A stretch of DNA of 55,279 bases from a virus (taxonomy: Duplodnaviria > Caudoviricetes): positions 1 to 55,279 of the IMG/VR virus record IMGVR_UViG_3300019768_000001. The stretch is one strand, 5' to 3'. The number at the start of each line of letters is the position of its first letter. The first letter of the stretch is position 1. A program made the position numbers and the translations under genes. Shown one piece after another: positions 17,828 to 49,648 of the stretch. Under the pieces are notes generated by a model. It was not told the origin of the DNA, ran no database searches, and saw nothing but the letters and a program-made list of their open reading frames with translations.

Positions 17828-17828
17828 G

Positions 17829-18074: not shown

Positions 18075-18133
18075 TTCCTGCTCAGTTAATTAATTGGTGC
18101 TTTTCCTTTTATCGCAAGGTTACCACCATACCA

Positions 18134-33315: not shown

Positions 33316-33716
33316 TTCAGACCACCTTTATTTTCTTGTTTATATATATCCAGAGTAGGTTTCTAGGTTTAGATAGGCATAACAACTCTAAGGAAACCAA
33401 TATTAATCAGTTAACCTTAGCTGTTATACCTGATATATCCGTCGTAGTGTGTCTTAGGATATCAAGGCAGTCTATTCGATCATGGTCTAATAAACTTAGG
33501 TCAGTATGGTCAATGAACCACCAGAGTCATGCGCTAGACCTACACCTGTTAAGGCAACTCTTAGGCGCTCCCGCTTGCTCTCTGTGCCATGTAGCGGGAT
33601 TGTCACCAGTACGCACCGGTTTTAACCGACATACTGGTCTAGCTGATTACGTGGGATTGCTCGGAGTAATCCCTTTAACCGTTTCTGGCTTCGGGACGTG
33701 GGGCGGGATTTCAGGC

Positions 33717-33815
33717 ATAAAAAAAGGTCTTTTAGGTGTGCCCCTGTGAGAGGAAGCGGAATTAACCGCAAAGACACACTTAAAAAACCTTTCTCGCTAT
33801 CTGGCTCTCACCCCA
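33717..33815 (-). ncRNA. C4-antisense-like element
   Basis: GTGAGAG/CTCTCAC and AGCG/CGCT complements around a long stem ending in a T run. Confidence 0.45.
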
Positions 33816-34007
33816 ATCAGCACTAACAATTATACTTTATGGTTAGATTTAATCAACAAATCTTTGAAGCACACCCTGCGGGGTTAATTGCCACCGGCGG
33901 TGCTTGGCCCCGATAGCAAAAACAGGATGCGCCCCAAAGCCCCTAAGAATCTTCATTATGAACCGCAATAGTTACTTTGCAATTAGCCTTTGGTATAATT
34001 GATAAAT

Positions 34008-34861: not shown

Positions 34862-35104
34862 CTAGACTTTTTCAACAAGTTCGAATGTTTTTATTGTTTC
34901 TGCAATATGGAAGTGGCCATCATACTTGTAACCTGGCGTTTTATGGTCAGCCAAAACCTTATCAGGGAATCTACGCATAAACTCTTTCGTTGAATAATCA
35001 TGGCCTGACACCACTTCACCTGTAAGCCTTGTTTCTTCAGTGTACTTAACCTCAAACCCAAGCTTCTCACATAGCGCAATTAACAACTTCATTTCATCGC
35101 TCAC
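34862..35104 (-). CDS. Hypothetical protein
   Basis: ORF with RBS. Confidence 0.5.
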   Translation of the reverse strand: MSDEMKLLIALCEKLGFEVKYTEETRLTGEVVSGHDYSTKEFMRRFPDKVLADHKTPGYKYDGHFHIAETIKTFELVEKV

Positions 35105-35124
35105 AATACACCCCTTATTTATGG

Positions 35125-35349
35125 CTAGCCTTTGGCAAGCTCTTCAGCTAACCATTTGGAATAATTTGCCGCCTTCTCTGCGTCACGCACAGGGTTGTCG
35201 GGCGTTTTATGCATCATTCGACACTGATATTTAAGCGCATTGCCCAGCAAATAACCCTGATACTGCTCTGGTGTCAGCTTGGCCTTAATCACATCAAGCG
35301 TTTCGATACCACCTGCATCGTAGTAGCTGCTTTTTACGTCTTTGCTCAT
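35125..35349 (-). CDS. DUF3310 protein
   Basis: Y..GGIETLDVI...GYL.GNALKY..R..HK...D.EKA..Y. Confidence 0.8.
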   Translation of the reverse strand: MSKDVKSSYYDAGGIETLDVIKAKLTPEQYQGYLLGNALKYQCRMMHKTPDNPVRDAEKAANYSKWLAEELAKG

Positions 35350-35672
35350 ATCAATCTTTTCCTTCCTTGATTACCACAACAGTTGGCGCTGGAGGCTCAG
35401 GCTTCGCTTTAAATATGAAGTACAAAATAATATTAATCAGGATCAGAGGCGGAAACAGAAACAGCTCAATGATACCGGTAAAAATCAACAACAAATTCCA
35501 TAAAATACGCATCACTTTTCCACCTTTTCAACTGGATTTCTTGCTCGAGGCAATCGCTTGTCTATAAAGTTCATCCATATATCACCAATACACCCAATAA
35601 AAAGAAGAGGCACTATTGGCGCTATAAGAATAAATCTTATAGCCCACCAGCCAACTACGATTTTACCACTGC

Positions 35673-35876
35673 TCATTTTTCCACCATTTCACATTTTGCC
35701 GTGCTTGTTACTGACTCAACACCTAGCAGCCTGGACACATCAACAGAAGGCCAATATAGGAAGTTTTCCGCCACCCTTTGGCATTTATCAAGATCATAGT
35801 AAACGGTCTTGCTGATCGATGGAGAGTTGATATAGCCGGTTAAATTAAGCGTTAGAGTCAGGGCTAGTATTATCAT
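35673..35876 (-). CDS. Small exported/membrane protein
   Basis: Signal-like N-terminus, two Cys; its GAGG RBS lies inside attC-like site D. Confidence 0.5.
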   Translation of the reverse strand: MIILALTLTLNLTGYINSPSISKTVYYDLDKCQRVAENFLYWPSVDVSRLLGVESVTSTAKCEMVEK

Positions 35877-35878
35877 TG

Positions 35879-35929
35879 CAATAACACCTCAATAACATAG
35901 ACCTTCGGCTATGTATTTCTCTGTTATAT
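35879..35929 (+). mobile_element. attC-like site D
   Basis: CAATAAC-acctc-AAT(A)ACATAG(A)CC-ttc-GGCTATGTATT-tctct-GTTATAT; two bulged bases on the L'' arm. Confidence 0.8.
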
Positions 35930-35931
35930 TG

Positions 35932-36057
35932 TTAAAACTCTAACATGGTATATTTTCTGCACTCCCAGAATCCTGGCGGTGTAGTCCAGTCGGCCCAGCG
36001 TCTGCGGACAAAAACTTTAAATTTAACGCCTTTATGTGTTCTGTATACAAGCTCCAT
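35932..36057 (-). CDS. Cassette ORF, 41 aa (MELVYRTHKGVKFKVFVRRRWADW...)
   Basis: Fills the segment between sites C and D; not in track. Confidence 0.45.
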   Translation of the reverse strand: MELVYRTHKGVKFKVFVRRRWADWTTPPGFWECRKYTMLEF

Positions 36058-36068
36058 GACAACCCTAA

Positions 36069-36130
36069 ATATAACAATGCAATCAAACAGATAACTCGTA
36101 ACCTCGTTACTCGTTATCGCCGGGTTATGT
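36069..36130 (+). mobile_element. attC-like site C
   Basis: ATATAAC-aatgc-AATCAAAC...GATAAC/GTTATC and GTAAC/GTTAC inner stems...GTTATGT; L pairing imperfect. Confidence 0.7.
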
Positions 36131-36313
36131 TACCTTTTTAATATTTAGTGTAATTTCCACCAGTTCAGTGTTTTCTCTATCATGCTTGTCTGCTACTTTT
36201 TTTAGGTATCGCCTAGCTGGTGTAGCGCTATCAAATATAAGCATGTTTTGGTTTTCTCCATCAACTCTAATCTGTTTCGTTTTACTATCAATCAGTACAA
36301 ATGAACTTTTCAT
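36125..36313 (-). CDS. Cassette ORF, 62 aa (MKSSFVLIDSK...)
   Basis: GAGG RBS; stop TAA lies within the R box of site C. Confidence 0.55.
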   Translation of the reverse strand: MKSSFVLIDSKTKQIRVDGENQNMLIFDSATPARRYLKKVADKHDRENTELVEITLNIKKVT

Positions 36314-36340
36314 TTTTTTAAGCCTCTTGTGTTTTCGGTA

Positions 36341-36399
36341 ACATAACAAGTAAAATCAAAGCTGACGCGCTACGCTTGAAGTTTATTTGGTGGTTATGC
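36341..36399 (+). mobile_element. attC-like site B
   Basis: ACATAAC-aagtaa-AAT(C)AAAG...GCG-tac/cta-CGC...GTTTATT-tggtg-GTTATGC; resembles site F. Confidence 0.75.
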
Positions 36400-36555
36400 G
36401 CCAAGCTCGGCAATACACCCAAGCAGCACAATTCTAAACAGCTCTGGTTTATCTCTATGCCAGTTGCCTAGTGTTTGTAGGCTTTGTCCTGTTAGCTCAG
36501 ATACTTGCGACAGGCTTTTAAGGCCAGCCGCTTTTGCTTGCTGTGATGGGGTCAT
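36394..36555 (-). CDS. Cassette ORF, 53-aa HTH-like protein (MTPSQQAKAAGLKSLSQVSELTG...)
   Basis: Not in track; ATGA-coupled to upstream ORF; stop in R box of site B; paralog of 18134..18322. Confidence 0.6.
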   Translation of the reverse strand: MTPSQQAKAAGLKSLSQVSELTGQSLQTLGNWHRDKPELFRIVLLGCIAELGA

Positions 36556-36764
36556 AGCAACCCCCGCTTCTCAGCATCTTTTAAAAATTCGTCTTGCTGC
36601 TCGACTGTCATGTGGCCAGCTATAGCAAGCTGCACTAATGCCATTAGGCGGTCGTCTTCCAGCTCACCTGCAAATTCTTTAAACATACCGTTTAGTTTGT
36701 TTGATCTTACTAGGCCGTCATTAATCATTTTATTTTGCTCCGTTGCGTTAGTTAGTAAGTACAT
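36552..36764 (-). CDS. Cassette ORF (likely start 36728, MINDGLVRSN...)
   Basis: GGAG RBS before ATG at 36728. Confidence 0.5.
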   Translation of the reverse strand: MYLLTNATEQNKMINDGLVRSNKLNGMFKEFAGELEDDRLMALVQLAIAGHMTVEQQDEFLKDAEKRGLL

Positions 36765-36829
36765 TGTTACAAACTATTTGCTCCTTGCCTAGTCTTTTTG
36801 CAAATTACTTTAAATTAATTGTAGAAAGC

Positions 36830-36882
36830 GCATAACAAAGCAAGGCAATCGGATGCAAGCACCGTTGCTCGCAAAGATTATT
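36830..36882 (+). mobile_element. attC-like site A (degenerate R')
   Basis: GCATAAC-aaagc-AAGGCAATCGG(A)TGC-aa-GCACCGTTGCTC-gcaaa-GATTATT; shares AACGGTGC..TCCGATT core with site E. Confidence 0.65.
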
Positions 36883-37312
36883 TGCTCTATTTGATGCGCC
36901 GACTATTTACCAATCAGCACATCGAATAAAACGCCCTGCCGCAGGAATCCGGGCCAGACCATGAAAAGAGGAAAAATATCAAAACCCCTTGCCTGCTTGC
37001 ACATTGATTCGGCTCTGTGTGCTCCACTGGAGATTCCGCGCATCATGTAAATCCAATGGACGGCAGCTTCAAAGCTACACAAAGCTAATTATCGCGGACA
37101 TAATGCCAGATCCGCGCCCTGATATAGGGTATTAATGTGACTGTTAGCGCCACCCTCCCCGCTGTGACAATATTGTCGGAAAGGTGACGCTAAGGAATGC
37201 GCTCTGTCGTTCCCATAATTTTATACACAACCACAATGCAATTTATTGAACAAACACACTTTGGTTAATGTTTAAGTTATGGCAAAGCGCATTATTTAGC
37301 GCAACTAACAGT

Positions 37313-37531
37313 CTACGGCAAGCTATCTTCGAGCTCCTTTTTTTCATCTTCGTCTATCAATCCTTTTTCGTACATTTCAACAATAAAACCATTAAACCCG
37401 CTGACAATATTGGTAAAATAACGACTTGAAACATGCGGGCCTAAACAAACCACTACAGGAATAAGAATCGCCGCTAAAATAGCGAATACAGCAAGATTAA
37501 AAAATAACCATGCCCCTATTATATTTTTGAT
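37313..37531 (-). CDS. 72-codon membrane protein ORF with ATC at the start position
   Basis: AAGGAGG RBS, then ATC-AAA-AAT..., TM helix, acidic tail, TAG. Confidence 0.45.
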   Translation of the reverse strand: MKNIIGAWLFFNLAVFAILAAILIPVVVCLGPHVSSRYFTNIVSGFNGFIVEMYEKGLIDEDEKKELEDSLP

Positions 37532-37549
37532 ACCGCCTCCTTGTTTAAT

Positions 37550-37620
37550 TGGCAGCCCTATCAGGAATCGAACCTGAATCGTTACAAATCAGCCACACTG
37601 ATACAGATGACGGCGCTCGT
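37550..37620 (-). ncRNA. tRNA-derived fragment (T arm + acceptor 3' strand + CCA)
   Basis: TCAGG-TTCGATT-CCTGA-TAGGGCT-G-CCA; no recognisable D or anticodon arm. Confidence 0.45.
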
Positions 37621-37732
37621 ACACCGCGAAATAACGACACAACCAGGATGGCAATTGATCTTATATGCTAATTTTTCAGACGAGCATAATTAATGATTGA
37701 TCATTGCCGCCCTATAATGTTCGGGCTTTAAA

Positions 37733-37809
37733 TGGGGCCACAAACGGGACTCGAACCTGCGACCTCTCGCTTAGGAGTCGAGCGTTCTATCCAACTGAAC
37801 TAATAGCGC
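37733..37809 (-). tRNA. tRNA-Arg(CCT)-like, acceptor stem poorly paired (possible pseudo-tRNA)
   Basis: GTTC-AGTTGGATA-GAAC D arm, CTCCTAA anticodon loop, GGTTCGAGTCC T loop, encoded CCA; about 3 acceptor mismatches. Confidence 0.6.
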
Positions 37810-37814
37810 TTAAG

Positions 37815-37888
37815 AGCTGAAGGCCGGATTCGAACCGACGCAATACCAATGCGAACAAAGGCGGGTTTTCCAGTTTCCCCACTTCAGC
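37815..37888 (-). ncRNA. tRNA-like element with aberrant anticodon arm
   Basis: Perfect GCTGAAG/CTTCAGC acceptor, GGG/CCC D stem, GTCGG-TTCGAAT-CCGGC T arm; anticodon stem does not pair; no CCA. Confidence 0.55.
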
Positions 37889-38230
37889 TTAAATTGACCA
37901 GACTCTTCTCAGAGTGTAGAGGAATGTTAGATAACCCCTAACCGGGTAGATTATCACCTCCTTACTTCGCCCCGTGATATTAGAATTAAAACGGTTACAG
38001 CTTTTCGGTTGGCTAAATACAGTAAAATTATGAGGCTGCACCTATCATCTTTTCAGACCTGATGGATAGCCAGGAGTCTTTCCATGTAAGATTTTTGGCG
38101 ACTCTTTAACGTGCTATTTCCTTCCCGTTGCCCTTCACTGTATTGGTGTAGGCACCTGCCAAATTGATCCAGTTAGGAGCGTCCATCAGCAGAAACCTAC
38201 CCAATACACACCGCTTAGCCGGTGAATCTA

Positions 38231-38392
38231 TGCATTAAAAATCAAGCTGAAGACCAAATTCCCAACCGATGATCGCGTCTACCTAATGACGCCTACTCAG
38301 GCTGCAGCCTGCTTATAGCCCACCCCGTCGACTAGGAGGGTGCCAGCGCCATGTATACTCACAACACTGAAAACAGCTTGATTTTTAATGCA
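38231..38392. repeat. 19-bp perfect inverted repeat enclosing a structured interior
   Basis: TGCATTAAAAATCAAGCTG ... CAGCTTGATTTTTAATGCA. Confidence 0.8.
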
Positions 38393-38742
38393 CACTGGTT
38401 ACGCCAGTGAATCGGATTTACTCTTATCTGATTGTGCTTTATTGGCCCGCACTTACCGCCGTAGTGGTCTAACGTTATCCTAACCATATTCAACCTGTTC
38501 AACTGCACCAGGCTTATGAATAGGCATCCAACTTTTTGACATTGGATCAGGTCTTTCTCTATGGCGATTCATACAGGCAAGTTGCAATAAAAATAATAAC
38601 ATCTCACCTTCCTTGTTAAGTCTGCCAGATTAACCGCTGGCAGCTCCGGTTTTGTCGGGTAACTCCGGCAACGAATGGCAACCCGCTGCCTGCAAAACAA
38701 TAATAGCAAATTAATTTAAACAGGTGGTATTAGACGTTGGTA

Positions 38743-38919
38743 TTAGTCCGGCTTAAACCTTTCTTTTCCGGTGCCATCACAGCCGCCACAAGGCGGGCTT
38801 CCATTGTGGTCATAAACACCTGATCCGCTACAAGCAGAACAAGGCCTCAACTTCCATCCCTTTACGTTTTTTTCATAGTATTCAGTACGCCGCTTCTTTC
38901 TCTCTTTGAATGTCGCCAT
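38743..38919 (-). CDS. Small Zn-finger protein (DnaJ-type CxxCxGxG repeats)
   Basis: CSACSGSG...CGGCDGTG. Confidence 0.65.
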   Translation of the reverse strand: MATFKERKKRRTEYYEKNVKGWKLRPCSACSGSGVYDHNGSPPCGGCDGTGKERFKPD

Positions 38920-38920
38920 C

Positions 38921-39388
38921 TCACCACCTCGCCTTATACTGTTCATAAAAATCTAAATACGGCTCTGACCACGTTACGTTATGCTCAACGCCCCATGCGT
39001 ACAGAAACGCTATAAAATCGCCAGCCTCACCTTTTCTAAACTCGGTAGTGCTAGCGCTCATGGTGACAGCCCTTTTGCCGTCTAGGCTTATTACAGTACG
39101 GCTTGGATGGCTTAGTTTCTGACCTTGGTTGTTTATTTCCATTTCAAACTGATCAACCAGCAGCCTTTTCCAGATATCGGCACCGTACTGCCTGCCTTCA
39201 ACCTCAACCTGACCCGCAATATCCCGAAACATCGCGTGGTACTTCTTTTCCATCAGCCGGGATTTCTTAACATCACGAATCAGGATCTCAACAGGCCCGC
39301 CAGTGACGTATGTTTTAACTACCTCCCAAACCTTACCCATCTGAGGCCGTAGATTGTCCAGCGATACCACAATTGTTATCGGCTTCAT
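38921..39388 (-). CDS. ninB: NinB-family recombination protein
   Basis: YHAM..DIA.QV...WK.LL...S.DG..V....STT.F...E..DFI.FLYAWG.E..V.WS. Confidence 0.75.
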   Translation of the reverse strand: MKPITIVVSLDNLRPQMGKVWEVVKTYVTGGPVEILIRDVKKSRLMEKKYHAMFRDIAGQVEVEGRQYGADIWKRLLVDQFEMEINNQGQKLSHPSRTVISLDGKRAVTMSASTTEFRKGEAGDFIAFLYAWGVEHNVTWSEPYLDFYEQYKARW

Positions 39389-39389
39389 A

Positions 39390-39740
39390 TTACCGCCACG
39401 TTCGATAGTTGATCACATCGTCAACAGATTGCACGGCAACACCATTAACGGCAGCCGCGAAAGTTTTTATCTTCCCCGCCCTATAGCCAGCGTCATCTAA
39501 CACTCTCATCATTTCAACATGCTCAGCCGTCAACTTAGCATTTGGATGATTCTCGCCCTGTCGCTTTTTAGTGTTTTTCATGTAGCTTAGCTTTTGGCAT
39601 ACCGAGTTGTAAGACCTCTGTAAAAACTCAGCCATTTCTTTCCTGCTCATCAACGGGTTTTCTTCTAAAAAAGAAACCTCTTCATCGCTCCATATTTTCT
39701 GCGCCATACTCTCACCTATTTTTTGATTATTGTTAGCCAT
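39390..39740 (-). CDS. Small DNA-binding protein
   Basis: WS.EE..FL myb-like start; GENHPNAKLT...RTWR motif. Confidence 0.6.
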   Translation of the reverse strand: MANNNQKIGESMAQKIWSDEEVSFLEENPLMSRKEMAEFLQRSYNSVCQKLSYMKNTKKRQGENHPNAKLTAEHVEMMRVLDDAGYRAGKIKTFAAAVNGVAVQSVDDVINYRTWR

Positions 39741-39770
39741 CCTTGGCAGGTTGTTAATTAGACTTTTTGG

Positions 39771-39992
39771 TTAAGCCTTCTCACCTCTACCGACAAACCA
39801 GTCGATAGCATCACAGATAAGCGGATCTTCCAACCAATTTTCCAGTTCACGATTCATCGCTCTATCCAGATAAACAACAGGGCCGCAGTAGTGGTGCCAC
39901 TCAAGAAACACCCTCCGGCCATCAGCCAGCCTTAACCTGTAATGCATTGAGTTTGTGCAGATAATACCGCCATGAAATACCGTACACGTCAT
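39771..39992 (-). CDS. Hypothetical protein
   Basis: EWH.YCGP motif; RBS. Confidence 0.55.
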   Translation of the reverse strand: MTCTVFHGGIICTNSMHYRLRLADGRRVFLEWHHYCGPVVYLDRAMNRELENWLEDPLICDAIDWFVGRGEKA

Positions 39993-39996
39993 ACTC

Positions 39997-40764
39997 TCAC
40001 CCCTTTAACATTGCTTTCATACGGTCAATTGCGTCTTGACCCTTGATACCTTCAAAACCTTGATCCTTTGCCTGCTTGTTACCGTCGCGGATCATTTTAT
40101 CGGCCATAGCGCGGCCCTGATTGTGCTGTGCGTCGTTTTCTAGCAGAGTCTGGCCGTTAGCCATAGCTTTTGCCAAAGAGTTGTACTCAGTAGCAAAGCG
40201 GGCCTTTACGGTCTTTTGCTCTGACTGGCTTGATGCCCTCGCAATATCGTATGACCCAACTCGTTTTACAGCTTCTCTGATAGCTGGATGACTCCATTTT
40301 CCGGCGCTAGGCATTCCAGCCTTCTTTTGAGCCTCTAAGAACGCCTCGTCAAGAGAAGGAAGTCCAAGCTCTTCTGCATCTACGTCACACAAAGAAACAA
40401 ACTCAGGAATCGTAGGCGGCCACTTAGGATGTCGTCGAATACTTTTCCCTATAGCAACCTGTATTCTATTTCTCTCCTGCTTGCCAATGGCTATCATCCA
40501 GAGAGAGTGCGGGTCTGTCGGCGGCATATCCCCGTGATCCCTGCTCCACTTGTCCCCGTATATCTCCATCATGCGGCCCCAGAACATCTTGGCATTGCTG
40601 GCTACTTCCTGAGAGCATTTGTCGCTCCCATTCGTCAAGTTTGGCTTGCCGTTCTGCATGCTTATCGCCTTGGTGCTGGCTATTGCCGCTCTGCCTATTT
40701 CCGCTGCTGATTTCATCGCTCCACCGCTCCTGATTGAAATATGTTGTCGGGTGCATTTCAGCAA
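39997..40764 (-). CDS. Replication protein P-like helicase loader (likely start MKSAAEI)
   Basis: WPPT.PEF..LC...LGLPS..EA..EA...WSHPA; overlaps initiator gene as in lambda O/P. Confidence 0.75.
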   Translation of the reverse strand: MLKCTRQHISIRSGGAMKSAAEIGRAAIASTKAISMQNGKPNLTNGSDKCSQEVASNAKMFWGRMMEIYGDKWSRDHGDMPPTDPHSLWMIAIGKQERNRIQVAIGKSIRRHPKWPPTIPEFVSLCDVDAEELGLPSLDEAFLEAQKKAGMPSAGKWSHPAIREAVKRVGSYDIARASSQSEQKTVKARFATEYNSLAKAMANGQTLLENDAQHNQGRAMADKMIRDGNKQAKDQGFEGIKGQDAIDRMKAMLKG

Positions 40765-41365
40765 AACCCCTTTGCCCAGACTTCAACCGGGCCTGAACAT
40801 CAATGAATAGTTTTCCAGCAAAGTCCACAGGGTCTAACTTGTTATTCTTTGCGTAAGATTTGAACTTGGCCAAAGCTGGCTTCTTGCCGACTTTCTTCAT
40901 GCCAGCACACCAATAAGTTTCAAATGCTTCAGCGCACACATCATCGAATGATGATGAATTATCTTTATATAACTCTTTGTTATCTTCTTTGTTATATAAG
41001 GGCACTTTATGACCCTTGCCAGATGTCGTTTCCGACCCTTGCGCAAGGGCGCTTTCCGACCCTTGCTGAACAACGTTGTAATACTTAGCTTTATTTACGG
41101 TCATCATCCTTTTTTTCCCGTAATTCGTTACTTTGGTATCCCGAAAAATCCAACCTTTATCGCTAAGCGACTTTAGAACCGACTTAACACGACGCTCAGA
41201 TAAATCAAAAAACTCAGCAAGATACTGATCACTGGCAAAGCACGGGCCTGTTCTTGAAAGAGCATCGATCTCAGCAAGAAATAAAACCTCCTGCTTAGTG
41301 ATCTCCGTTGAGCTCCAAAGCTCTACTGGTATCCAGATTCCTGTAAACCCCCTTTCATCGCTCAT
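40466..41365 (-). CDS. Replication initiator (lambda O-like, N-terminal HTH)
   Basis: FTGIWIP...CFASD.YLA.F; KKVGKK.A...HPTTYFNQERW; internal iterons. Confidence 0.8.
   Translation of the reverse strand: MSDERGFTGIWIPVELWSSTEITKQEVLFLAEIDALSRTGPCFASDQYLAEFFDLSERRVKSVLKSLSDKGWIFRDTKVTNYGKKRMMTVNKAKYYNVVQQGSESALAQGSETTSGKGHKVPLYNKEDNKELYKDNSSSFDDVCAEAFETYWCAGMKKVGKKPALAKFKSYAKNNKLDPVDFAGKLFIDVQARLKSGQRGFAEMHPTTYFNQERWSDEISSGNRQSGNSQHQGDKHAERQAKLDEWERQMLSGSSQQCQDVLGPHDGDIRGQVEQGSRGYAADRPALSLDDSHWQAGEK
41011..41066. repeat. Probable origin iterons
   Basis: GACCCTTGC at 41011, 41034 and 41058 inside the initiator gene, next to an AT-rich tract. Confidence 0.6.
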
Positions 41366-41856
41366 TTCATATGCTCCATTGTGTATTCTGCAAAATGCTC
41401 AATATCCACGTCTTTAAACTTTTTGATATCAAATAAATCAAAATACCTTCTGGCCACGTGAAGAAATCGGCCTTTATTCTCCATGCATAGATAAAAGAAA
41501 TAATTATTTGAAGGCTCACATAACGGGCTATGCGAACACATAGATGCTACAAATGAAGGCCATGGAACAAAGAAGTTTCTTTCTCCAATATAGTTCGCGG
41601 CATCAAGGGCCTCTTGCGGCGAAACGGAAAACATCTCACCATGAACAACCCTATCCTGAAAGAATCGCTTCAGCATGCTCTCCCTTTGTGATGGGTTTGT
41701 TACCTCTAAGCTCCAAAACAATGAGAACGTATAGCCTTTGTAGCACCGCTTTAGCTCTGAAACCCGATCTTCTGGACGCTTTCTTGTGAACCCGATCTTG
41801 CACCAGTTAGGATTTTGATCTACCGATGCTATGTAGATATTTCCGGTAAATATCAT
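41362..41856 (-). CDS. T5orf172/GIY-YIG-type nuclease domain protein
   Basis: GNIYI...KIGFT.K.PE.R..EL...GE.F. Confidence 0.75.
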   Translation of the reverse strand: MIFTGNIYIASVDQNPNWCKIGFTRKRPEDRVSELKRCYKGYTFSLFWSLEVTNPSQRESMLKRFFQDRVVHGEMFSVSPQEALDAANYIGERNFFVPWPSFVASMCSHSPLCEPSNNYFFYLCMENKGRFLHVARRYFDLFDIKKFKDVDIEHFAEYTMEHMK

Positions 41857-41903
41857 ATATAATTACTCGTATGTGTTTTGGCCCGGTTCGCCGGGTTTCT
41901 TTT

Positions 41904-42182
41904 TTATGCAATGCAAATATCTTCAATAAATCCAGATAATCGCTTCATCTCAAAACCAGTCTTCAGCTTGTAATAAATTACAGTTGACTCTCTTCTAGTC
42001 TCGACCATATCCGAGTCACGAAACACCTTTAAATGCTGTGACAAGGAGCTCTGAGACAGCGTAGGAACCAGCTTGTTTATATCCCCTGCCGAAATCTCAC
42101 CCGCATTTTTAATGGCAATAAAAATCTGTCTACGCGCTTTATTCGACATGCATCCGAACATTTTAGATACGTTCATAATCAA
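41904..42182 (-). CDS. ArsR/SmtB-family HTH regulator
   Basis: R..I...LSQSSLSQHLKV.R....V..RRE...IYY.L. Confidence 0.8.
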   Translation of the reverse strand: MIMNVSKMFGCMSNKARRQIFIAIKNAGEISAGDINKLVPTLSQSSLSQHLKVFRDSDMVETRRESTVIYYKLKTGFEMKRLSGFIEDICIA

Positions 42183-42274
42183 CCTCTCCTGTGTTTAAAT
42201 ATACTTTACTAAATATTAATCTATACGTCAAACAAAAACCGGCGCTAACCGGTTTGGGTGTTAGGGTTTTCTGT

Positions 42275-42466
42275 CTACTGCTTTACGCAAACAGCAGTGC
42301 TATACACGTCAATCATATTGCTTTTATTTATCTGCTGCTGCAAAAGCGCAGATCTCGCTGCAAGGCATGACTCATAACTACTGAATCCGTTTATAGATTC
42401 AGTTGATACAGATGCAGGATCACCAAAAACTCTAACTATAACCACTAACACAAGCGCAAAACTCAT
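42275..42466 (-). CDS. Small exported/membrane protein
   Basis: Hydrophobic N-terminus; F.SYESC..A...AVCV motif. Confidence 0.55.
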   Translation of the reverse strand: MSFALVLVVIVRVFGDPASVSTESINGFSSYESCLAARSALLQQQINKSNMIDVYSTAVCVKQ

Positions 42467-42612
42467 AAATCACCACAGTTTCAATTGTTCTTCCCGGTAG
42501 CCGGGCTGTTTGTTTTTCTTTGGTACCCTTACAGGTGAGGGCACCAAATCAGGATCAGCGCCACGCATCCAGTCACGGAACGCGCGGCGTTTCTGCTCAA
42601 GACTTCGCGAAT

Positions 42613-42816
42613 TCAATCTAGAAGCCCTCGCTCTCTTCTCGATTCATGCCAGCCAGCAAGCCACCAGTGGCGTTTGCATAGCTGGGACTTTTCGCGCAAA
42701 TAAGCGCCGTCTCCGACTTTTGAAACCTGATCACCGAACGGGCAAGACTTAATGTCTGCGCCTTCTTCGCTTGCTTGATGGCCTTTGTAGTACGGCTCCG
42801 GGTAATTATTCATCAT
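42613..42816 (-). CDS. Rmf/CrpP-like small protein (start MMNNYPEP)
   Basis: Y.KG.QA...G.....CPF...W.AGW pattern. Confidence 0.5.
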   Translation of the reverse strand: MMNNYPEPYYKGHQASEEGADIKSCPFGDQVSKVGDGAYLREKSQLCKRHWWLAGWHESRRERGLLD

Positions 42817-43072
42817 GAATAGAAATATCCTGTTCATCGATCCGCTTAAGCTCAAGGCGCGCCAAAATTTCATCTGTTCGTTTTTTAATCGCCAGCGCAT
42901 CAGCGTCAGGTTTGCCGGGCTGGCCTTTATGACATTTAACGCAACGGTCAGAAGACAAATAACGGTACAAAGTGTCGCACTTACTGCATTTAACGTTATG
43001 CGCGTACTGGCCTGAAGGTCGAAGGATTGCCGCGTGGAACCGCTGAAAGTCGCTCTAATTAGTAGTTGCCAT
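42806..43072 (-). pseudogene. Zn-finger gene with in-frame TAG at codon 6
   Basis: AAGGTG RBS; MATTN*SDFQRF...CSKCDTLYRYLSSDRCVKC...; stop overlaps next start. Confidence 0.55.
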
Positions 43073-43712
43073 TGTGATCACCTTGAAGTTTTGTTGTTTG
43101 ATTGACTTGCTGAAAGAATAGAGTGATTACAGGGATTAGACCGTAATGCGTCATATGCCTAAACATCATTCCGTTGTAGCCTTTATTGCCTAATGCCGCT
43201 GCACAATAAAAATACGTAGACAGTAACAATAGTATTCCGAATAGAAGCTCTAAACTGTTCATTTTAATTCCTCTGCGTGCTCTTTCCGGTACTTCTCAAA
43301 GGCATTAAAAACCTCTGAAGTGTCTAGCGGCTCATGTATCTCATTACCGTCTGAGTCATAGGCAATAAACTCAATCTCGCCGCCCTCAGCCTCATGATGA
43401 AAGGTTGCAGGAATTACTTTCTCGTAGTGCGTTACTTCTATAGTGAATCCGTTAAATCGAAACATTCTCCACCTCCCCTATAAGCTTCTGAACTTTTTTA
43501 CTAGAAATACTGGTTCTTTTCCCCTTGTACATCACGGTTCCTGTTGACGGCCAATAGTCCATTTTCTTTCCATCAACAAACCGACTCCAGTGGTAAGGAG
43601 TGTGCTTGTCCCACCCTTTACTACATGCGCCTTCAAGTCGATTTTTCTTTTTTTCTTTCCGGTCTTCTTTTAAGGCCTTAAAGGCAAGTGCAATATCTGA
43701 ATCAGAGCTCAT
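43059..43712 (-). CDS. Three coupled early hypothetical genes (43452..43712, 43259..43465, 43059..43262)
   Basis: Overlapping stops/starts; first has DYWPSTG motif. Confidence 0.55.
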
Positions 43713-43763
43713 TTGTTTATCGTCCCGTTGTTTGCGTCCTATTAAATTAACGTAAAATTAAAC

Positions 43764-43800
43764 TTGATGCAACGTTATTTTAACGTTATAGTGACGTTAT
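43764..43800 (+). promoter_or_regulatory. Divergent control region: TTGATG/TATAGT promoter overlapped by three ACGTTAT repeats
   Basis: ACGTTAT at 43772, 43783, 43794 (11-bp period). Confidence 0.55.
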
Positions 43801-43819
43801 CAAATCACGAGGCAGAAAC

Positions 43820-43975
43820 ATGGCTATAAAGAAAAACAACCCGTCCTCTTATATGAATGACGAGCAGCTGAGGCTGGCAACAGAAGCCTCAGTTAAAGAA
43901 GGTAGAAGTCTGTCATCTTTTATTCGTATGGCAGTAGAAGAAAAAACAAACAAGGTGTTAGGGGTGAAAAAATGA
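43820..43975 (+). CDS. Ribbon-helix-helix-like regulator, 51 aa (not in track)
   Basis: GAGG RBS; A..EGRSLSSFIRMAV.E pattern; ATGA overlap with next gene. Confidence 0.65.
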   Translation: MAIKKNNPSSYMNDEQLRLATEASVKEGRSLSSFIRMAVEEKTNKVLGVKK

Positions 43976-44322
43976 GCAGGGCTTACACTGTGTACAAGGG
44001 TGAAATTAAAGGTAGGCTGGTTTACATAGGAACAACAATACAAAAGCCAAGCAATAGATTTAGATGGCATAAAAATAATGGTAAACCATTCGATTTTACT
44101 GTTTTGAGTCAGCATGAAACATCAGAAGAGATGCTAGAAGAAGAGTTAAGGTTGATAAAAAAACACAAGCCAAAATACAACAAGATAAGACACAGAAAGC
44201 AAAATCTAAATGTTAAATTATCAAAGGAGGATCTAGATAAAAGAGTGGGAGATAGCGAGTGGTGTCAAAGCTGCTTAAAGCGTCGAGTAAATAATGGTTA
44301 CTCTAAGTGTTATTACTGTTAA
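43972..44322 (+). CDS. GIY-YIG family nuclease
   Basis: YTVY...VYIGTT....R.RWH...E..LI....PKYN. Confidence 0.7.
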   Translation: MSRAYTVYKGEIKGRLVYIGTTIQKPSNRFRWHKNNGKPFDFTVLSQHETSEEMLEEELRLIKKHKPKYNKIRHRKQNLNVKLSKEDLDKRVGDSEWCQSCLKRRVNNGYSKCYYC

Positions 44323-44334
44323 AAAGGATTAAAA

Positions 44335-45165
44335 ATGAGTCAGTTATTTATTGCAGAGATGAGCAACGAGGAATACCACGGCGGCCATGGTGTTTCAAAA
44401 TCAACATTGGACTTAGTGCATAGAGATCTGTTTGCACCAGAATGGTCTAAGAAGTGCCCGCAAGACAAGGACAAGCTTAAGACTTTGGATTTTGGCGATG
44501 CAATGCACGCAATATGCTTGGAGCCTGACCGTCTAGAATCAGAGTTCGTTGTAATGCCAGCATTCAACCTTAGAGCTAATGACGGCAAGGCATCAAAAAA
44601 GGCGTTTGAAGCCGAGCATGACGGCCATAAGATTCTAACCGCAGACGAACACTTTAAGCTGAAACTGATGTTTGAATCGGTAATGGCGCACCCTCAAGCA
44701 AGACGACTAATTGAGGCCGAAGGTATTGCAGAGGGCTCTTACTTTTGGGATGACGAGCAAACAGGGATCACCTGCAAGTGCCGACCAGATAAGCACATTG
44801 TAAAAGAAGGGCTCCTGGTTGACGTGAAGACTACGCCAGATCTCAAAAAGTTCTGTTACTCGGTAGATGATTACCGCTACCACGTACAAGATCCATGGTA
44901 CTGCGACGGAATAAGCCGGTTTCACGGCGAAACCAGAATGGAATTCCTTGCTATCCAGAAAACAATAGAGCTTGGTAAGTACCCGGTCATGGTTGTAAAG
45001 CTTCCTCAAGAGGCTATTGAATATGGTAGGGCCTTGTACCGAGAAGACTTAAATCGTTACGCTGATTTTATTAATAGCGACAAGCAAGCCGGAACCAAAG
45101 AGCTGGCAATGCATTACAATTTCCTTGATCGGGCATACGAGAAGATAACAGAGGTTGAGCTATGA
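44335..45165 (+). CDS. RecE/Exonuclease VIII-like PD-(D/E)XK nuclease (DUF3799-like)
   Basis: SNEEYH...SKS.L; G.A.H...LEP; CKCRPD...DVKTT; YHVQ..WY. Confidence 0.85.
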   Translation: MSQLFIAEMSNEEYHGGHGVSKSTLDLVHRDLFAPEWSKKCPQDKDKLKTLDFGDAMHAICLEPDRLESEFVVMPAFNLRANDGKASKKAFEAEHDGHKILTADEHFKLKLMFESVMAHPQARRLIEAEGIAEGSYFWDDEQTGITCKCRPDKHIVKEGLLVDVKTTPDLKKFCYSVDDYRYHVQDPWYCDGISRFHGETRMEFLAIQKTIELGKYPVMVVKLPQEAIEYGRALYREDLNRYADFINSDKQAGTKELAMHYNFLDRAYEKITEVEL

Positions 45166-45689
45166 GTGACGTTACAAATCTTGCTGACACGGTAGCACCA
45201 AAAAGCGATCAACTTAATGCTGACGACCTGCTAACAGGGCCAATTACTGTAACCGTTATCGATGTTAAGCGCGGCCCTAAAGATCAGCCTGTCTGGATCG
45301 TGATAGATGGCGGTCGACAGCCATACAAGCCGTGCAAGTCAATGCGTCGCGTAATGATCCAAGCTTGGGGGGCTAATGGTAAGGACTGGGTAGGTCGATC
45401 TATGACCTTGTTCTGTGATCCTAGTGTTAAGTTTGGCGGCGTGGCTCTTGGAGGTATTCGCATCAGTCACATGAGCCATATTACCGGAACGCTTGATATG
45501 ATGCTGACAGTAACAAGAGGCCGTAAAAATCAGTTCAAAGTTCACCCGTTGAAAACTGTTGATTATTCAAAACTGATAGCAGGTTATTCAGCGATGAACC
45601 AAGAAGATAGAAATAAAGCGTGGGCAACATACACGCCAGATCAGCAGATGGCTATCAGTAACGCAATGAACAGTGGAGTAAGCAATTAA
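45162..45689 (+). CDS. Conserved phage protein partnering RecE-like nuclease (putative ssDNA-binding/annealing)
   Basis: PKSDQLNADDL..GP...PYKPCKSMRRV...GGIRISHMSHI family; function inferred from synteny. Confidence 0.6.
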   Translation: MSDVTNLADTVAPKSDQLNADDLLTGPITVTVIDVKRGPKDQPVWIVIDGGRQPYKPCKSMRRVMIQAWGANGKDWVGRSMTLFCDPSVKFGGVALGGIRISHMSHITGTLDMMLTVTRGRKNQFKVHPLKTVDYSKLIAGYSAMNQEDRNKAWATYTPDQQMAISNAMNSGVSN

Positions 45690-45727
45690 TGTCTCGCGGA
45701 ATAAATAAAGTAATTATTGCCGTATAA
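45689..45727 (+). pseudogene. Orphaned ssb 5' remnant (MSRGINKVIIAV*)
   Basis: Matches canonical SSB N-terminus MASRGVNKVIL; GGAG RBS; followed by HNH gene. Confidence 0.7.
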
Positions 45728-45769
45728 TCGTTTTTTCGTTACTATATTTAACATATAGAAGGGGCTTAT

Positions 45770-46273
45770 ATGGATGAATATGATTTATATAACAACGGAA
45801 AAAGCATACCAGAGGTAAGCGATGAGACAGGGATACCAAGATCAACACTGAGATTCAGGTTTAAAAAAGCAGGAATATTAAGGTCTAGGGCTGATGGCAT
45901 TAAAAACGCATCAAAAAACGGTCGATTAGGTTCAGGTCTTAGAGGTAAGAAAAGGGTTTTCACAGAAGAGTGGAAGAATAATATTTCAAAAGGAAAAACC
46001 GGAAAGGGGCTTGGTGTATCTGTAAAGCCTAGTGGATATATAGAGATAACGATGGGAGAAAACAAGGGTAGGTTGGAGCATGTTGTAATAATGGAGTTGA
46101 TAATAGGAAGAAGGCTTGCGTCAAACGAGTGCGTTCATCATAAAGATGAAAACAGGGCCAACAACGACCCTGAAAACCTTCAGTTAATGACAAGAAGCGA
46201 GCATGCATCTTTGCATGCTAAGCAAAATATAAGCAAAAGAAATAGAGATAAGAGAGGTCGTCTTTGTGGCTAA
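45770..46273 (+). CDS. HNH homing endonuclease
   Basis: N-terminal HTH/NUMOD-like; EH.VIME..IGR.L...E.VHHKDE.R.NN..ENL.LMT.SEH..LH. Confidence 0.85.
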   Translation: MDEYDLYNNGKSIPEVSDETGIPRSTLRFRFKKAGILRSRADGIKNASKNGRLGSGLRGKKRVFTEEWKNNISKGKTGKGLGVSVKPSGYIEITMGENKGRLEHVVIMELIIGRRLASNECVHHKDENRANNDPENLQLMTRSEHASLHAKQNISKRNRDKRGRLCG

Positions 46274-46850
46274 CGATTTAAATCAGTGTCAATTTATTGG
46301 ACGTTTAGGGAAAGACCCTGAAACAAAATTTCTTCCAAACGGTGGGCAGGTTACTAACATATCGATAGCCTGCGGAAGCTCTTGGACTGACAAATCGTCT
46401 GGCCAGAAGCAAGAGAAAACCGATTGGATACCAGTGGTTTTTTTTGGAAAACTTGCAGAAATAGCAGGCCAGTACTTAACGAAGGGGTCAAAAATATTTG
46501 TATCCGGTAATTTTAAAACACGCAAATGGCAGGATCAATCTGGCCAGGATCGCTACACAACAGAGATCGTTGTCGATGGCTTTGGCGGTGTAATGCAGAT
46601 GTTGGATAGCAAGAGTGACGGGCAAGGCGGCGGGCAAAATAATGCTCCACCACAACAGGCACCAGCACCAGTACCGGCACCAACGCCACAAAAAGACTAT
46701 GCAGCTGAATACATGGCTATGACCCGCGAACAGCAAACACAGATGTGGCCGAGCTATACCGATGCACAGCGCCAATTGATCACCGACGCTGTAATGTCTC
46801 AGAAACAACCTGAAAGCAATCTGCCTCAGCCAGACGACATACCTTTTTAG
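46266..46850 (+). CDS. ssb: Single-stranded DNA-binding protein
   Basis: IGRLGKDPE...TRKWQDQSGQDRYTTEIV; acidic DDIPF tail. Confidence 0.95.
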   Translation: MANDLNQCQFIGRLGKDPETKFLPNGGQVTNISIACGSSWTDKSSGQKQEKTDWIPVVFFGKLAEIAGQYLTKGSKIFVSGNFKTRKWQDQSGQDRYTTEIVVDGFGGVMQMLDSKSDGQGGGQNNAPPQQAPAPVPAPTPQKDYAAEYMAMTREQQTQMWPSYTDAQRQLITDAVMSQKQPESNLPQPDDIPF

Positions 46851-46968
46851 CAACAGCAGCCCGGCTTCGGTCGGGCGATAGGGTGATTTATGAACAAAAC
46901 ACCAAAGCAGCGCCGTCACTCGCTATTAATGATGGATAACCACCGGAAGAGACTGGAGGCTGAGCGGG

Positions 46969-47595
46969 ATGGGAAACAGCAAAAAACGCTGTAAGCAGTG
47001 CAAGAAATACGTTCCGGCTGAATCTGGAATTAAGGTGCCAGCCGGTTTCTTTTGCTCCCATGATCATGCTATTGAGTTTGCCAAAGCAAAGCAGGCTCAA
47101 TCGTCGCTTAAACAGCGCAAGGAGCGCGAACGCATAAAGTCGATGACTGTTAAGGATTTGGACAGAGAAAGCCTTCCTTGGCAGCACAAGCAGACCCAGA
47201 AGGCTTTTAACAGAATGAGGGTCTTGCAAGAGCTGTATTATTATCAATCGAACGGTCTAGAGCCCGTTTGTATTAGCTGCCAGAAACCGCTAGGCGGTGA
47301 TCAGTGGTGCTGCGGTCATTATAAAACCGTAGGCGCTCACCCAGAGCTGAGGTATGACCCTCTAAACACTCACTTGCAGCATAACCGTAATTGCAATATG
47401 GGATTATCGGGTGACATAAAAGGCTATACGTTCGGGCTCGTTGATCGCCACGGCAAGGACAAAGCTGCAGAGATATACGATTATCTGGCGGTAGATAATG
47501 GGCCAAAAAAATACACTTGTGATGAGCTGGAAAAAAACCGAGCAGAGTACCGAAAAGAAATTAGGCAACTAGAGAAAATTGTAACTATCGTCTAA
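46969..47595 (+). CDS. ninG: NinG/Rap-family recombination nuclease
   Basis: CKQCK...FCS..HA; CISCQ...CCGHYKTVGAHPELR.D..N.H.Q...CN..LSG. Confidence 0.85.
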   Translation: MGNSKKRCKQCKKYVPAESGIKVPAGFFCSHDHAIEFAKAKQAQSSLKQRKERERIKSMTVKDLDRESLPWQHKQTQKAFNRMRVLQELYYYQSNGLEPVCISCQKPLGGDQWCCGHYKTVGAHPELRYDPLNTHLQHNRNCNMGLSGDIKGYTFGLVDRHGKDKAAEIYDYLAVDNGPKKYTCDELEKNRAEYRKEIRQLEKIVTIV

Positions 47596-47657
47596 TACCG
47601 GCCAATCCTGATAACCGGTAAATTACAGATTCAAACAATAGCAAGCAAGGGGATAAC

Positions 47658-47870
47658 ATGAGCAAGATAGCAAGCGTTTACGATAAGAATTCAAAGTCAG
47701 TGATTTTAGATATGCGCCATCCGAACAAAGATGTGCCTAGACCTGAAATTGTGATCGACACAGAAACAGAGAAGTACGCCGTTCCGGGCGGGAAGACATT
47801 TGAGCTGCTTCGAGATGCGCGTGTTGTAGCAACTGAGATGTTTAGTAAGGCGGGTTTTGTTTGCCAGTAA
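47658..47870 (+). CDS. Hypothetical protein
   Basis: RBS; stop TAA lies in the R' box of site E. Confidence 0.5.
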   Translation: MSKIASVYDKNSKSVILDMRHPNKDVPRPEIVIDTETEKYAVPGGKTFELLRDARVVATEMFSKAGFVCQ

Positions 47871-47924
47871 CCATATAAATAAACGGTGCAGCGCAGCAAG
47901 TCCGATTTAATTTGCTTGTTATGC
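47865..47924 (-). mobile_element. attC-like site E
   Basis: Minus: GCATAAC-aagca-AAT(T)AAA(T)CGG...CCGTTTATT-tatatg-GTTACTG. Confidence 0.7.
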
Positions 47925-47946
47925 TGCGAATAGATAGGGGGGGAAT

Positions 47947-48120
47947 ATGGGCGTTAGAATGAAAAAGACAGATCGAGAATGGCACGAGTACCCATTAGGG
48001 ACTAAAGCTCACGCCGTTATGGGTGGTTATTGGGAAAGAGTTAAGGGTGGCTGGAAATGGTGTACAGGTTCTACCTTTCCTACTCCCGGTGCTGACTGGC
48101 GAGTAATAGAATTACCATAG
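47947..48120 (+). CDS. Cassette ORF, 57-aa Trp/Gly-rich protein (MGVRMKKTDREWHEYPLGTKA...)
   Basis: Not in track; G-rich RBS; fills the segment between sites E and F. Confidence 0.55.
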   Translation: MGVRMKKTDREWHEYPLGTKAHAVMGGYWERVKGGWKWCTGSTFPTPGADWRVIELP

Positions 48121-48122
48121 CA

Positions 48123-48182
48123 ACATAACCCCTTAAACAAACGCAGAGCGTAGCGATGTAGCTTTGCTTTAAATTGTTATAT
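48123..48182 (-). mobile_element. attC-like site F
   Basis: Minus: ATATAAC-aattt-AAA(G)CAAA...TTTGTTT-aaggg-GTTATGT; resembles site B. Confidence 0.75.
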
Positions 48183-48194
48183 TACGGAGACATT

Positions 48195-48629
48195 ATGGAT
48201 TACTTAAAACTATTGCAAGAAAGCTACAGAGAAACAGCAGAGAATAGGGATGACCCAACTTTAGAAAAACTAGAGTTCTTGGCTGAGGGTATTTTCGGAT
48301 TCACGACATACGAGAATGTGGTTTCTTCTACGATGGCGCAAAAGGCACTAGAAGTATGCAAGGCGATAAGTGACAAAAAGACATTTGATTACATTGCCAG
48401 TGAAGAGGGAAATCTTTGGTATCTGGTAATGGTTAATATGCCGTTTTTTGAAAACAGGCTTAATTGGGGTACTTCTATTCGTGGTGCTTGGTGGGATCTG
48501 TGGGGCAATAAAGAATTCACCATTGAGAGTTGCGAACTGTTTGGCGGTGAACAGATACTAGAGCTTAAATTGAATGACAGTGAATGGGTTAAGTTTATAG
48601 AAGCTATGATTAAGTTCGCGGAAGAGTAA
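48195..48629 (+). CDS. Cassette ORF, 144-aa hypothetical protein (MDYLKLLQESY...)
   Basis: GGAG RBS just after site F; stop abuts site G; WGTSIRGAW motif. Confidence 0.65.
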   Translation: MDYLKLLQESYRETAENRDDPTLEKLEFLAEGIFGFTTYENVVSSTMAQKALEVCKAISDKKTFDYIASEEGNLWYLVMVNMPFFENRLNWGTSIRGAWWDLWGNKEFTIESCELFGGEQILELKLNDSEWVKFIEAMIKFAEE

Positions 48630-48679
48630 TATAACAAAGAAATACAGGGCGGAACGTCCCTGTTATTGATGTGTTATGC
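48629..48679 (-). mobile_element. attC-like site G
   Basis: Minus: GCATAAC-acatc-AAT(A)ACAGGG(A)CG-ttc-CGCCCTGTATT-tcttt-GTTATAT. Confidence 0.8.
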
Positions 48680-48883
48680 CAAAGTCTAATACCGCACCGA
48701 CTAAGTAAGGCGCACAATAAGAAAAAACGGAGGGTCGAACATGCGCAGAAAGTCAGCGGTAACATCGGTTATCAGGCATAAAATCAAAGACCCTCAAAAA
48801 CTAGCAGATGCGGAAGTGTCAGCCATCAATTATTTAAATCTGGGTGATACAGCTCACCGGGCGATTAAAAAGGCGCTTAATCT

Positions 48884-49394
48884 ATGAAAGCTCACATGCA
48901 TGACGCTAGCATATCGTCAAGCTCTGTCTCTGAATCTCGAAACAGGGCGTACAGCTGTATAACGCTAACAGATAGTACGGGGTCAGAGCTGGAGTTATTT
49001 ATGCACGATCCTGACGCAATGAAAGAGATTGCGATAAAGATTAATGCGGAGGCCGAAAAGCTGAAGCGTAAGATTGAGGATATGGAGCAATCAGAGCATG
49101 AGTAATGCAATTGTTATAGAAAAGTGCATTGGTGACAGAGGTAAACACTATGCAGAGCAATATCTTATTGCAAAAGGGCTTGCAGTTGCCTCTGCAATGT
49201 ATAACGGGCTCTGGTTTATTGTTGGGTCGGACGCTATAGAAACGTCTGATCAGATCATAAAAGCTGTAGTTACATGTGAGGCTTTTAATCAGTCCGATGA
49301 TAAAAACATGACTGATAAGACCGAGGAGTTTAACAAGGCAATAAATACATACAGCACCCTAACAGTGCTGCAGTTTTCAGAGATAGGGGCTTAA
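48884..49394 (+). CDS. Two coupled hypothetical genes (48884..49105 and ~49098..49394)
   Basis: Overlapping ORFs ending at a convergent hairpin. Confidence 0.45.
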
Positions 49395-49405
49395 CGCCCC
49401 TTTGA

Positions 49406-49648
49406 TCACCCCAGTAAATCGGACAGCTCTGCCTCGATCATCATTCTTACCTGTTTTTTACCTGCATTAACAAAAGCTGCGGGGGATTCTTTTCTAACCG
49501 CCTCAATAGCCCCTTTCATTTTATCTGCACCGTTTTTATCTGCGCCTTCCTGATTCGAAACCGCTTTAACAACGGCGGCACGAAGGTTTTTATCTGTCGC
49601 TGCTTTGAATGCGATTTTTAGCAGCAACTTAACAATCCAAGACTTCAT
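49406..49648 (-). CDS. Small lysis-module protein, possibly holin-like
   Basis: Follows endolysin; AV...E....G..K...A...MIEA pattern reminiscent of LL-H-type holins. Confidence 0.4.
   Translation of the reverse strand: MKSWIVKLLLKIAFKAATDKNLRAAVVKAVSNQEGADKNGADKMKGAIEAVRKESPAAFVNAGKKQVRMMIEAELSDLLG

Follow-up and report, generated by a model that had tools for sequence, protein, structure and literature searches.

A family of bracketed intercistronic spacers in the variable regions of lambda-like temperate phages

Why should the same short sequence stand between unrelated genes, and even in unrelated phages? The question is raised by two small gene arrays in a virus record of 55,279 bp (IMG/VR IMGVR_UViG_3300019768_000001), the whole of which was analysed and is called the window here. 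The window is a complete record with 123-bp terminal repeats and carries genes for the tape-measure, portal and major head proteins and the large terminase. Its arrays, in which short sites alternate with small open reading frames (ORFs), form the distal tips of two divergent early arms, the left one on the minus strand and the right one on the plus strand. Temperate phage genomes are mosaic, and the exact-boundary swapping of their small genes is disputed, with illegitimate recombination set against recombination at short shared sequences. The sites described here are a previously undescribed family of spacers, found in variable parts of the genomes of at least four temperate phages, all of them uncultured. 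The explanation that we favour, with a probability of about one half, is that they are portable intercistronic spacers that would serve as gene-swap junctions when acting as DNA and, in the class that folds into a hairpin (type II), would also act as RNA, by analogy with the PeSL cassettes of T4-type phages.

An earlier note on this DNA had read the sites as attC sites whose subtypes recur in the same order in both arrays; its observations are partly confirmed, its statements on the sequence itself being correct, and its interpretation is partly supported by what follows. An (A)TAAC...TTGTTAT bracket is common to two classes of site, type II (D, G and H) and type I (A, B, E and F), with C as an intermediate, and the sites are distributed over the window as follows.

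36829–36889, minus strand: site A, type I, first in the left-arm array; lacks the 5′ TAAC; 3′ end TTGTTATGC; 37.5 bits by nhmmer
36343–36397, minus strand: site B, type I; its ATAAC includes the stop codon of the preceding ORF
36071–36128, minus strand: site C, bracketed, with an inner hairpin of its own (nested ATAAC/GTTAT); its ends resemble F; intermediate
35881–35927, minus strand: site D, type II hairpin, last in the left-arm array
47868–47922, plus strand: site E, type I, first in the right-arm array, after NinG and one ORF
48125–48180, plus strand: site F, type I
48631–48677, plus strand: site G, type II hairpin, last in the right-arm array
17779–17825, minus strand: site H, solitary type II hairpin in the late region, after an 81-amino-acid (aa) ORF
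33379–33427, minus strand: a ninth bracketed hairpin (I), RNA fold −24.9 kcal/mol, z-score −5.3

All elements are intercistronic and 47–75 nucleotides (nt) long. Each begins with (A)TAAC at the upstream stop codon or no more than 6 nt from it and closes with an invariant TTGTTAT, which precedes the next ribosome-binding site, and the downstream genes start 4–63 nt past the sites. The ATAAC..TGTTAT bracket occurs 14 times in the window (at seven loci plus one probable chance match), against 1.67±1.47 and a maximum of 6 in 200 Markov resamples, and in a search of the window and its closest relative, profiles built from the sites matched only sites.

That relative, G001, is a complete phage of 55,858 bp and a heavy mosaic of the window. 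It was found by scanning with a D-type pattern, and among the matches listed for the 16-nt pattern scan it was the sole real one, the rest being due to chance. A pattern derived from two of its sites found two further viral contigs, G002 (37 kb) and G003 (46 kb). Both are prophages: each has a phage-type integrase, and the host tRNA flank next to it is the same in the two. The shared flank, which bears tRNA genes and is 94% identical (1–400 in G003, 19143–19336 in G002), indicates that the two are prophages at the same attachment site in related hosts. The proteins that either prophage has in common with the window or G001 are confined to one 233-aa gene, an SSB at 43% identity and one match at 29%, and no phage-encoded factor common to all four genomes was found.

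The portability of the sites is clearest where nearly identical copies lie among unrelated genes. Site D (35880–35928) is identical at 49 of 49 positions to a site, D′, in the other (right) arm of G001, with unrelated flanking genes on either side. In G001, the homologue of the gene that follows D is not preceded by a site. Identity between orthologous genes of the two phages is 73–93%. In the same manner, one type I subtype (g1 in G001, S5 in G003 and G2_b in G002) is 58/59 identical between G002 and G003 and 91–93% identical to its G001 counterpart, although the three lie at different places and are flanked on both sides by unrelated ORFs; the integrase genes of G002 and G003 are 67% identical. 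In all three genomes, the identity of this g1-type site starts at TAAC and stops at GTTAT. The earlier proposal that sites persist while their cargo changes therefore holds for D/D′ and for g1/S5/G2_b, and in both cases the site was found to travel with neither of its neighbours. Moreover, a 551-nt low-depth contig from one sequencing run matches the window only at site E, over 63 nt with four differences, and the left array is covered without differences by the contigs of one run.

The turnover of the genes between the sites is equally pronounced. The ORFs concerned are listed here with the one that precedes H.

35932–36764, minus strand: left-array cargo ORFs 36552–36764 (70 aa), 36394–36555 (53 aa, weak match to a helix-turn-helix regulator), 36125–36349 (74 aa) and 35932–36057 (41 aa)
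47658–48629, plus strand: right-array cargo ORFs 47658–47870 (70 aa), 47947–48120 (57 aa) and 48174–48629 (151 aa, phrog_18399)
17829–18074, minus strand: the 81-aa ORF, which appears or disappears jointly with H relative to G001

No pair among 11 ORFs flanking the sites is related at E<0.2, as the earlier note had maintained. None of the four left-array ORFs has a G001 homologue at the same place, all three right-array ORFs are absent from G001, and six of the seven array ORFs of the window lack a homologue there, the seventh being represented by a single 42% match elsewhere in that genome. Across the four genomes, no array ORF is common to any two, save for the 233-aa gene, whose copy in the window is not part of an array. 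Another phage carries a homologue of the 151-aa ORF, at 59% identity, and no sites surround it there. As an observation in its own right, a 237-aa gene of unknown family in the window (8433–9146, plus strand) encodes a protein 79% identical to the product of a cargo gene inside the G003 array; the G003 homologue has no Pfam or NCBIfam match, and the pair is one of only three protein matches between the phage lineages.

At three of the sites, the junctions with G001 lie at or close to the bracket. Homology to G001 resumes at the TGTTATC of H, at position 48679, two bases past the G bracket, and at the start codon 4 nt after D. The H locus of G001 holds a different ORF that lies between two TGTTAT sequences; at the left edge of this ORF stands the terminal 11-mer of H, which occurs once in each genome. 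At the ninth bracketed hairpin, the stem is retained in G001 and the loop is replaced.

That the sites form one family follows from their sequences. For the pairs D–G, G–H, B–F and A–E, none of 300 shuffles matched the observed alignment score. The ungapped identities of D with G (41/51) and G with H (44/51) are exactly those given earlier, D and H share 37/51, and the motifs said to be common to A and E and to B and F are indeed present, with B and F identical at 51 of 65 aligned positions. The matching of A with E as a specific subtype pair fails, because the alignment of E with A (31/44) is poorer than those with B (43/58) and with a G001 site (46/66). Nor is an ancestral array that was duplicated required, as had been suggested: similarity between the two arms is limited to the sites, and the same subtypes are found in phages whose gene contents barely overlap.

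The type II sites are defined by their fold. Above a lower helix, ATAACA/TGTTAT, come an internal loop and an upper helix that contains a single bulged base and ends in a C-S-GAA-S-G tip. In the three window copies, all 17 pairs are kept and three are changed on both sides. The paired substitutions claimed between D and G are thus real, with no pair broken in the comparison of D with G and H, but in the triplet described as GGG/CCC to TAG/CTA only two pairs change while the third is constant. Fold z-scores are −3.4 for G, −3.2 for H and −1.7 for D, whereas those of the remaining sites (A, B, C, E and F) lie between −0.1 and −0.7. With D, G and H as its basis, a covariance model was run over the 194.7 kb of the four phage genomes and found seven type II copies at E<0.01, scoring 26.3–79.8 bits; in 834 kb of unrelated loci, many of which had been chosen for carrying half the motif, the top score was 23.3 bits. 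In the alignment of the seven copies fitted to this model, which was used because MAFFT misaligned one copy (S6), 97.5% of 119 cells are paired. Nine of the eleven upper-helix pairs covary, with changes on both sides, and the lower helix is invariant except for one G-U pair. None of 500 shuffles did as well. This covariation bears out the earlier view that the hairpin of D, G and H is under selection.

Type I sites are held together by sequence rather than by structure. Thirteen of them can be aligned, with TTGTTAT invariant, TAACC nearly so, and central GAGC..AGCGA and GTCCGA blocks, and RNAalifold returned no consensus pairs in either six or thirteen of the sequences. Over both classes, A alone of the 13 type I sites lacks TAAC, all seven type II copies have it, and TGTTAT is found in all 20.

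Both classes have a direction. The seven type II copies and the thirteen aligned type I copies all lie in the direction of the genes, and in nine of ten bracketed hairpins the sense RNA is the better folder, with 13 G-U pairs in the sense strands against five in the antisense strands. Therefore, orientation and strand bias together point to a fold of the transcript or, failing that, of the sense strand. TGTTAT was also considered as an extended −10 promoter and rejected, since promoter scans find none and the implied start would lie past the ribosome-binding site.

The order of the sites obeys a rule at the level of the class. Five arrays combine type I sites with a type II site that the model supports (window left, window right, G001 right, G002 24.3–23.97 kb and G003 41.2–43.2 kb), and in every one of them the type II site comes last, so that a type II site does close the arrays. 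If placement were random and the arrays independent, which is not assured, this would be expected about once in 432 cases. Finer subtypes keep no such order: three pairs in like order, as reported for the two arrays of the window, arise by chance in one case in six, and across the genomes the g1 subtype is first of three in G001, second of three in G002 and fifth of six in G003. Site type thus goes with position for the two classes but not for the subtypes within them. G002 has a further array, the sixth, whose final bracketed sequence (37036–37088) was rejected as type II, with a fold z-score of −0.04 and no match to the model.

It is conceivable that the sites are purely regulatory RNA, the type II hairpins serving as leaky or bidirectional terminators or as RNase processing signals and the type I sites as leaders or trailers, with no role in recombination and with ordinary horizontal transfer of small blocks accounting for their spread. 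Orientation, sense-strand fold bias and the closing position of type II would all suit such a function, as would the A-rich 5′ and T-rich 3′ flanks. G and H, moreover, match the terminator pattern of a GC-rich stem and T-rich tail, mainly antisense to the genes, with G giving a weak sense match as well. D, however, is not flagged, the genes that follow the sites begin within 4–63 nt and would need read-through, and the invariant outer helix would be superfluous for a terminator. Regulation alone leaves unexplained the identities of 49/49 and 58/59 amid unrelated flanks, with limits exactly at the bracket. We therefore regard a purely regulatory role as rather unlikely.

Portable spacers are the reading that we prefer. 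The sites separate single orphan genes in hypervariable distal early operons and, as DNA, would offer short shared stretches at which recombination between co-infecting phages could swap genes in or out. The same site would then stand between unrelated genes, even in unrelated phages, because recombination had occurred at shared spacers. Exchange at the sites could be driven by the phage's own exonuclease, SSB, NinB and NinG, whose genes lie in the early arms.

44335–47595, plus strand: recombination genes adjoining the right array, namely a PDDEXK exonuclease (44335–45165), SSB (46266–46850) and NinG/Rap (46969–47595)
38921–39388, minus strand: NinB/Orf, a recombination gene

Recombination of the Red type has been described as efficient where the homology is short or diverged (PMC2327257). 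As RNA, the type II hairpin would form in the sense transcript and close each array, where it would probably be a processing, stabilising or attenuating signal. What the comparisons show is the family, its fold and covariation, its orientation, the sharp limits of identity and the turnover of the cargo; the exchange of DNA and the action of the RNA are both inferred.

Several points weigh against this reading. An RNA-level function would be argued solely from orientation and fold asymmetry, and scans of 35500–37300, 46800–48900 and 17300–18300 found a sigma-70 promoter in no site, unlike in the PeSLs. The covariation was counted on an alignment whose fitting to the model favours the structure. 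Four sites of G003 (S1–S4) were called type I by their bracket and aligned blocks, and a type I profile from six founder sites gave an E-value of 0.099 for S2 and nothing for S1, S3 and S4. Furthermore, breakpoints of homology between the window and G001 are only weakly enriched near GTTAT/ATAAC genome-wide (7 of 88, 3.3 expected), and junctions at gene ends are common in phages anyway. In the contigs of three sequencing runs, no alternative joints were seen beyond those explained by G001 and by the G/H repeat. Finally, the data set consists of four genomes from a narrow set of samples.

The resemblance to attC sites that had been proposed at the outset deserves closer comparison. In outline, a type II site resembles an integron attC site: beyond the core helix come an unpaired spacer and a second helix that has a single extrahelical base and a variable tip, and structure is conserved above sequence. 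AAC and GTT cores bracket 19 of the 20 sites, and the arrays, like integron arrays, are co-directional and promoterless runs of orphan ORFs. Arrays of integron type without an integrase of their own (CALIN-like) could be recombined at the GTT/AAC core by a host integron integrase or by some other recombinase. The site-sharing phages have no candidate enzyme in common, and any enzyme acting on the sites would therefore be the host's. The H locus of G001, with its ORF between two TGTTAT sequences and the H-ending 11-mer at the left edge, would also suit a cassette, and the H locus is the only one at which an ORF and a site come and go jointly.

Nevertheless, the sites fail several tests for attC. 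Neither tyrosine nor serine recombinases were found in the window or G001, where PF00589, the family searched for IntI, gave no matches. The integrases of G002 and G003, which score 53 bits on PF00589, far below every Xer/IntI cut-off, had no integron-integrase model match; they lie beside DUF4224 and host tRNA genes and are of the ordinary phage type. According to what PMC5027507 reports, the extrahelical bases of attC lie in the AAC arm of the coding strand and the bottom strand is the substrate, whereas the single bulged base of D, G, H and S6 lies on the 3′ (GTT) arm of the coding strand, the opposite of that rule, and it is the sense strand that folds better, not the bottom strand. In addition, the type I sites have no consensus fold, the elements of 47–75 nt sit inside phage operons, and the D-type pattern had no real match in 185,579 species genomes, the six matches obtained all being due to chance. 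The same site follows unrelated ORFs in D/D′ and g1/S5/G2_b, and the sites show no linkage to the upstream ORF. Since no IntI is present, the bulge is on the GTT arm, the sense strand folds better, type I is foldless and the sites do not travel with the upstream ORF, they are not filed as attC. It is tempting to picture the arrays as a phage-borne cassette system without an integrase, in which the ATAAC/TTGTTAT helix would be a cut-and-join core read by a host enzyme, whether an integron integrase or another, orphan genes would move between unrelated temperate phages of one host community and the type II site would be terminal. Given the evidence above, however, any CALIN-like arrangement of this kind seems to us a distinctly long shot.

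Selfish miniature palindromic elements (REP/MITE-like), moved by a host transposase, would offer another account, in which position and order are by-products of tolerated insertion. Short terminal inverted repeats, sharp ends, several copies per genome and near-identical copies in unrelated contexts and unrelated phages are all what such elements would display. Yet all 20 copies are co-oriented with the genes and are confined to a few gene arrays instead of being scattered, no target duplication is evident, Y1 transposase (PF01797) has no match in the window or G001, and the one pattern tried revealed no copies in bacterial genomes. This origin is therefore considered improbable.

In IMG/VR, no further members of the spacer family were found with the D, A/E and B/F patterns, the last two having no matches in viral contigs. 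Two site queries against cultured phages returned only partial, chance-level matches (E 0.1–0.8). In Rfam 15, the whole window gave only two tRNAs at gathering scores, and the arrays of the window and G003 gave no matches at E≤1. At 11 loci with NinG relatives of 45–50% identity, similar sites were present in none. A search with the protein encoded at 49074–49394 matched G001 only, and among the matches listed for a metagenome scan with a NinB alignment only G001's own contig appeared.

As for the phage itself, its early region is lambda-like, with an antirepressor, NinB, O-like and P-like replication proteins, the PDDEXK exonuclease, an HNH endonuclease, SSB and NinG. No close cultured relative was found by megablast of 35000–49500, which gave no match, and the best portal match is 38.7% identical. 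The stretch 45684–46627, covering the HNH endonuclease gene and the start of SSB, is 99.5% identical to G001, while neighbouring shared genes are 73–93% identical, which looks like a recent transfer of a homing-type endonuclease gene. Inside the replication module, a protein with a T5orf172/MUG113 (GIY-YIG-like) domain (41362–41856, minus strand) is a possible second homing endonuclease. Three stretches without a convincing ORF (33430–33860, 36929–37134 and 38197–38419) are nonetheless conserved with G001, at 83%, 80% and 96%, and may be non-coding RNAs or replication or regulatory regions. The two tRNA genes called by Rfam lie at 37736–37809 and 37815–37888 on the minus strand, while ARAGORN reports none; a third tRNA-like 3′ end is located near 37544–37576 on the same strand.

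There may also be a second family of intergenic signals. The motif RGTCTAATW occurs eight times in the window (3806, 7383, 17344, 20867, 28902, 33484, 39756 and 48683), against 1.84±1.33 expected, mostly in intergenic leaders or at stop codons, and the related forms GTCGAA and GTCCAAT are found 3′ of stop codons in the plus-strand block at 9.5–11.5 kb.

The spacer family provides a recognisable and searchable marker of gene-swap boundaries in lambda-like phages, with a covarying fold and a positional rule, and its model offers a means of locating variable islands of accessory genes in uncultured phages. Should it prove true that a dedicated enzyme acts on the sites, they would constitute a new cassette system.

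Among known systems, the RNase III processing hairpins of phage T7 are similar at the RNA level, as they have two helices with an internal loop and lie between the cistrons of the early polycistronic transcript. At the level of DNA, short conserved boundary sequences, or linkers, have long been proposed to underlie the mosaicism of lambdoid phages (as cited in PMC3029335). Like the present sites, these linkers, as that source presents them, are short conserved stretches at gene boundaries that are able to support the homologous exchange of modules. The present sites differ in being a recognisable repeated family, with a defined bracket and a covarying type II fold, and in being clustered in arrays rather than placed singly at module borders.

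The closest known analogue is the PeSL cassettes of T4-type phages, which are described as repeated intergenic motifs that span the stretch between a stop codon and the following ribosome-binding site and cluster near orphan genes in hyperplastic regions, with recombination between them shuffling the genes (PMC2839356, PMC4122927). The present sites likewise are intergenic repeats that run from stop codon to ribosome-binding site and adjoin orphan genes in hyperplastic regions, with a stem-loop inside (here in type II only) and with indels and replacements between close relatives bounded by the motif. In contrast to the PeSLs as those accounts portray them, with their strong sigma-70-like early promoter, no promoter of this kind was found in the sites, and the hosts of the latter are lambda-like temperate siphophages and prophages rather than T4-type myoviruses. 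Finally, the present spacers are distinguished by an invariant ATAAC/TTGTTAT bracket, two classes and a fixed coarse order, and they are common to phages that share almost no genes.

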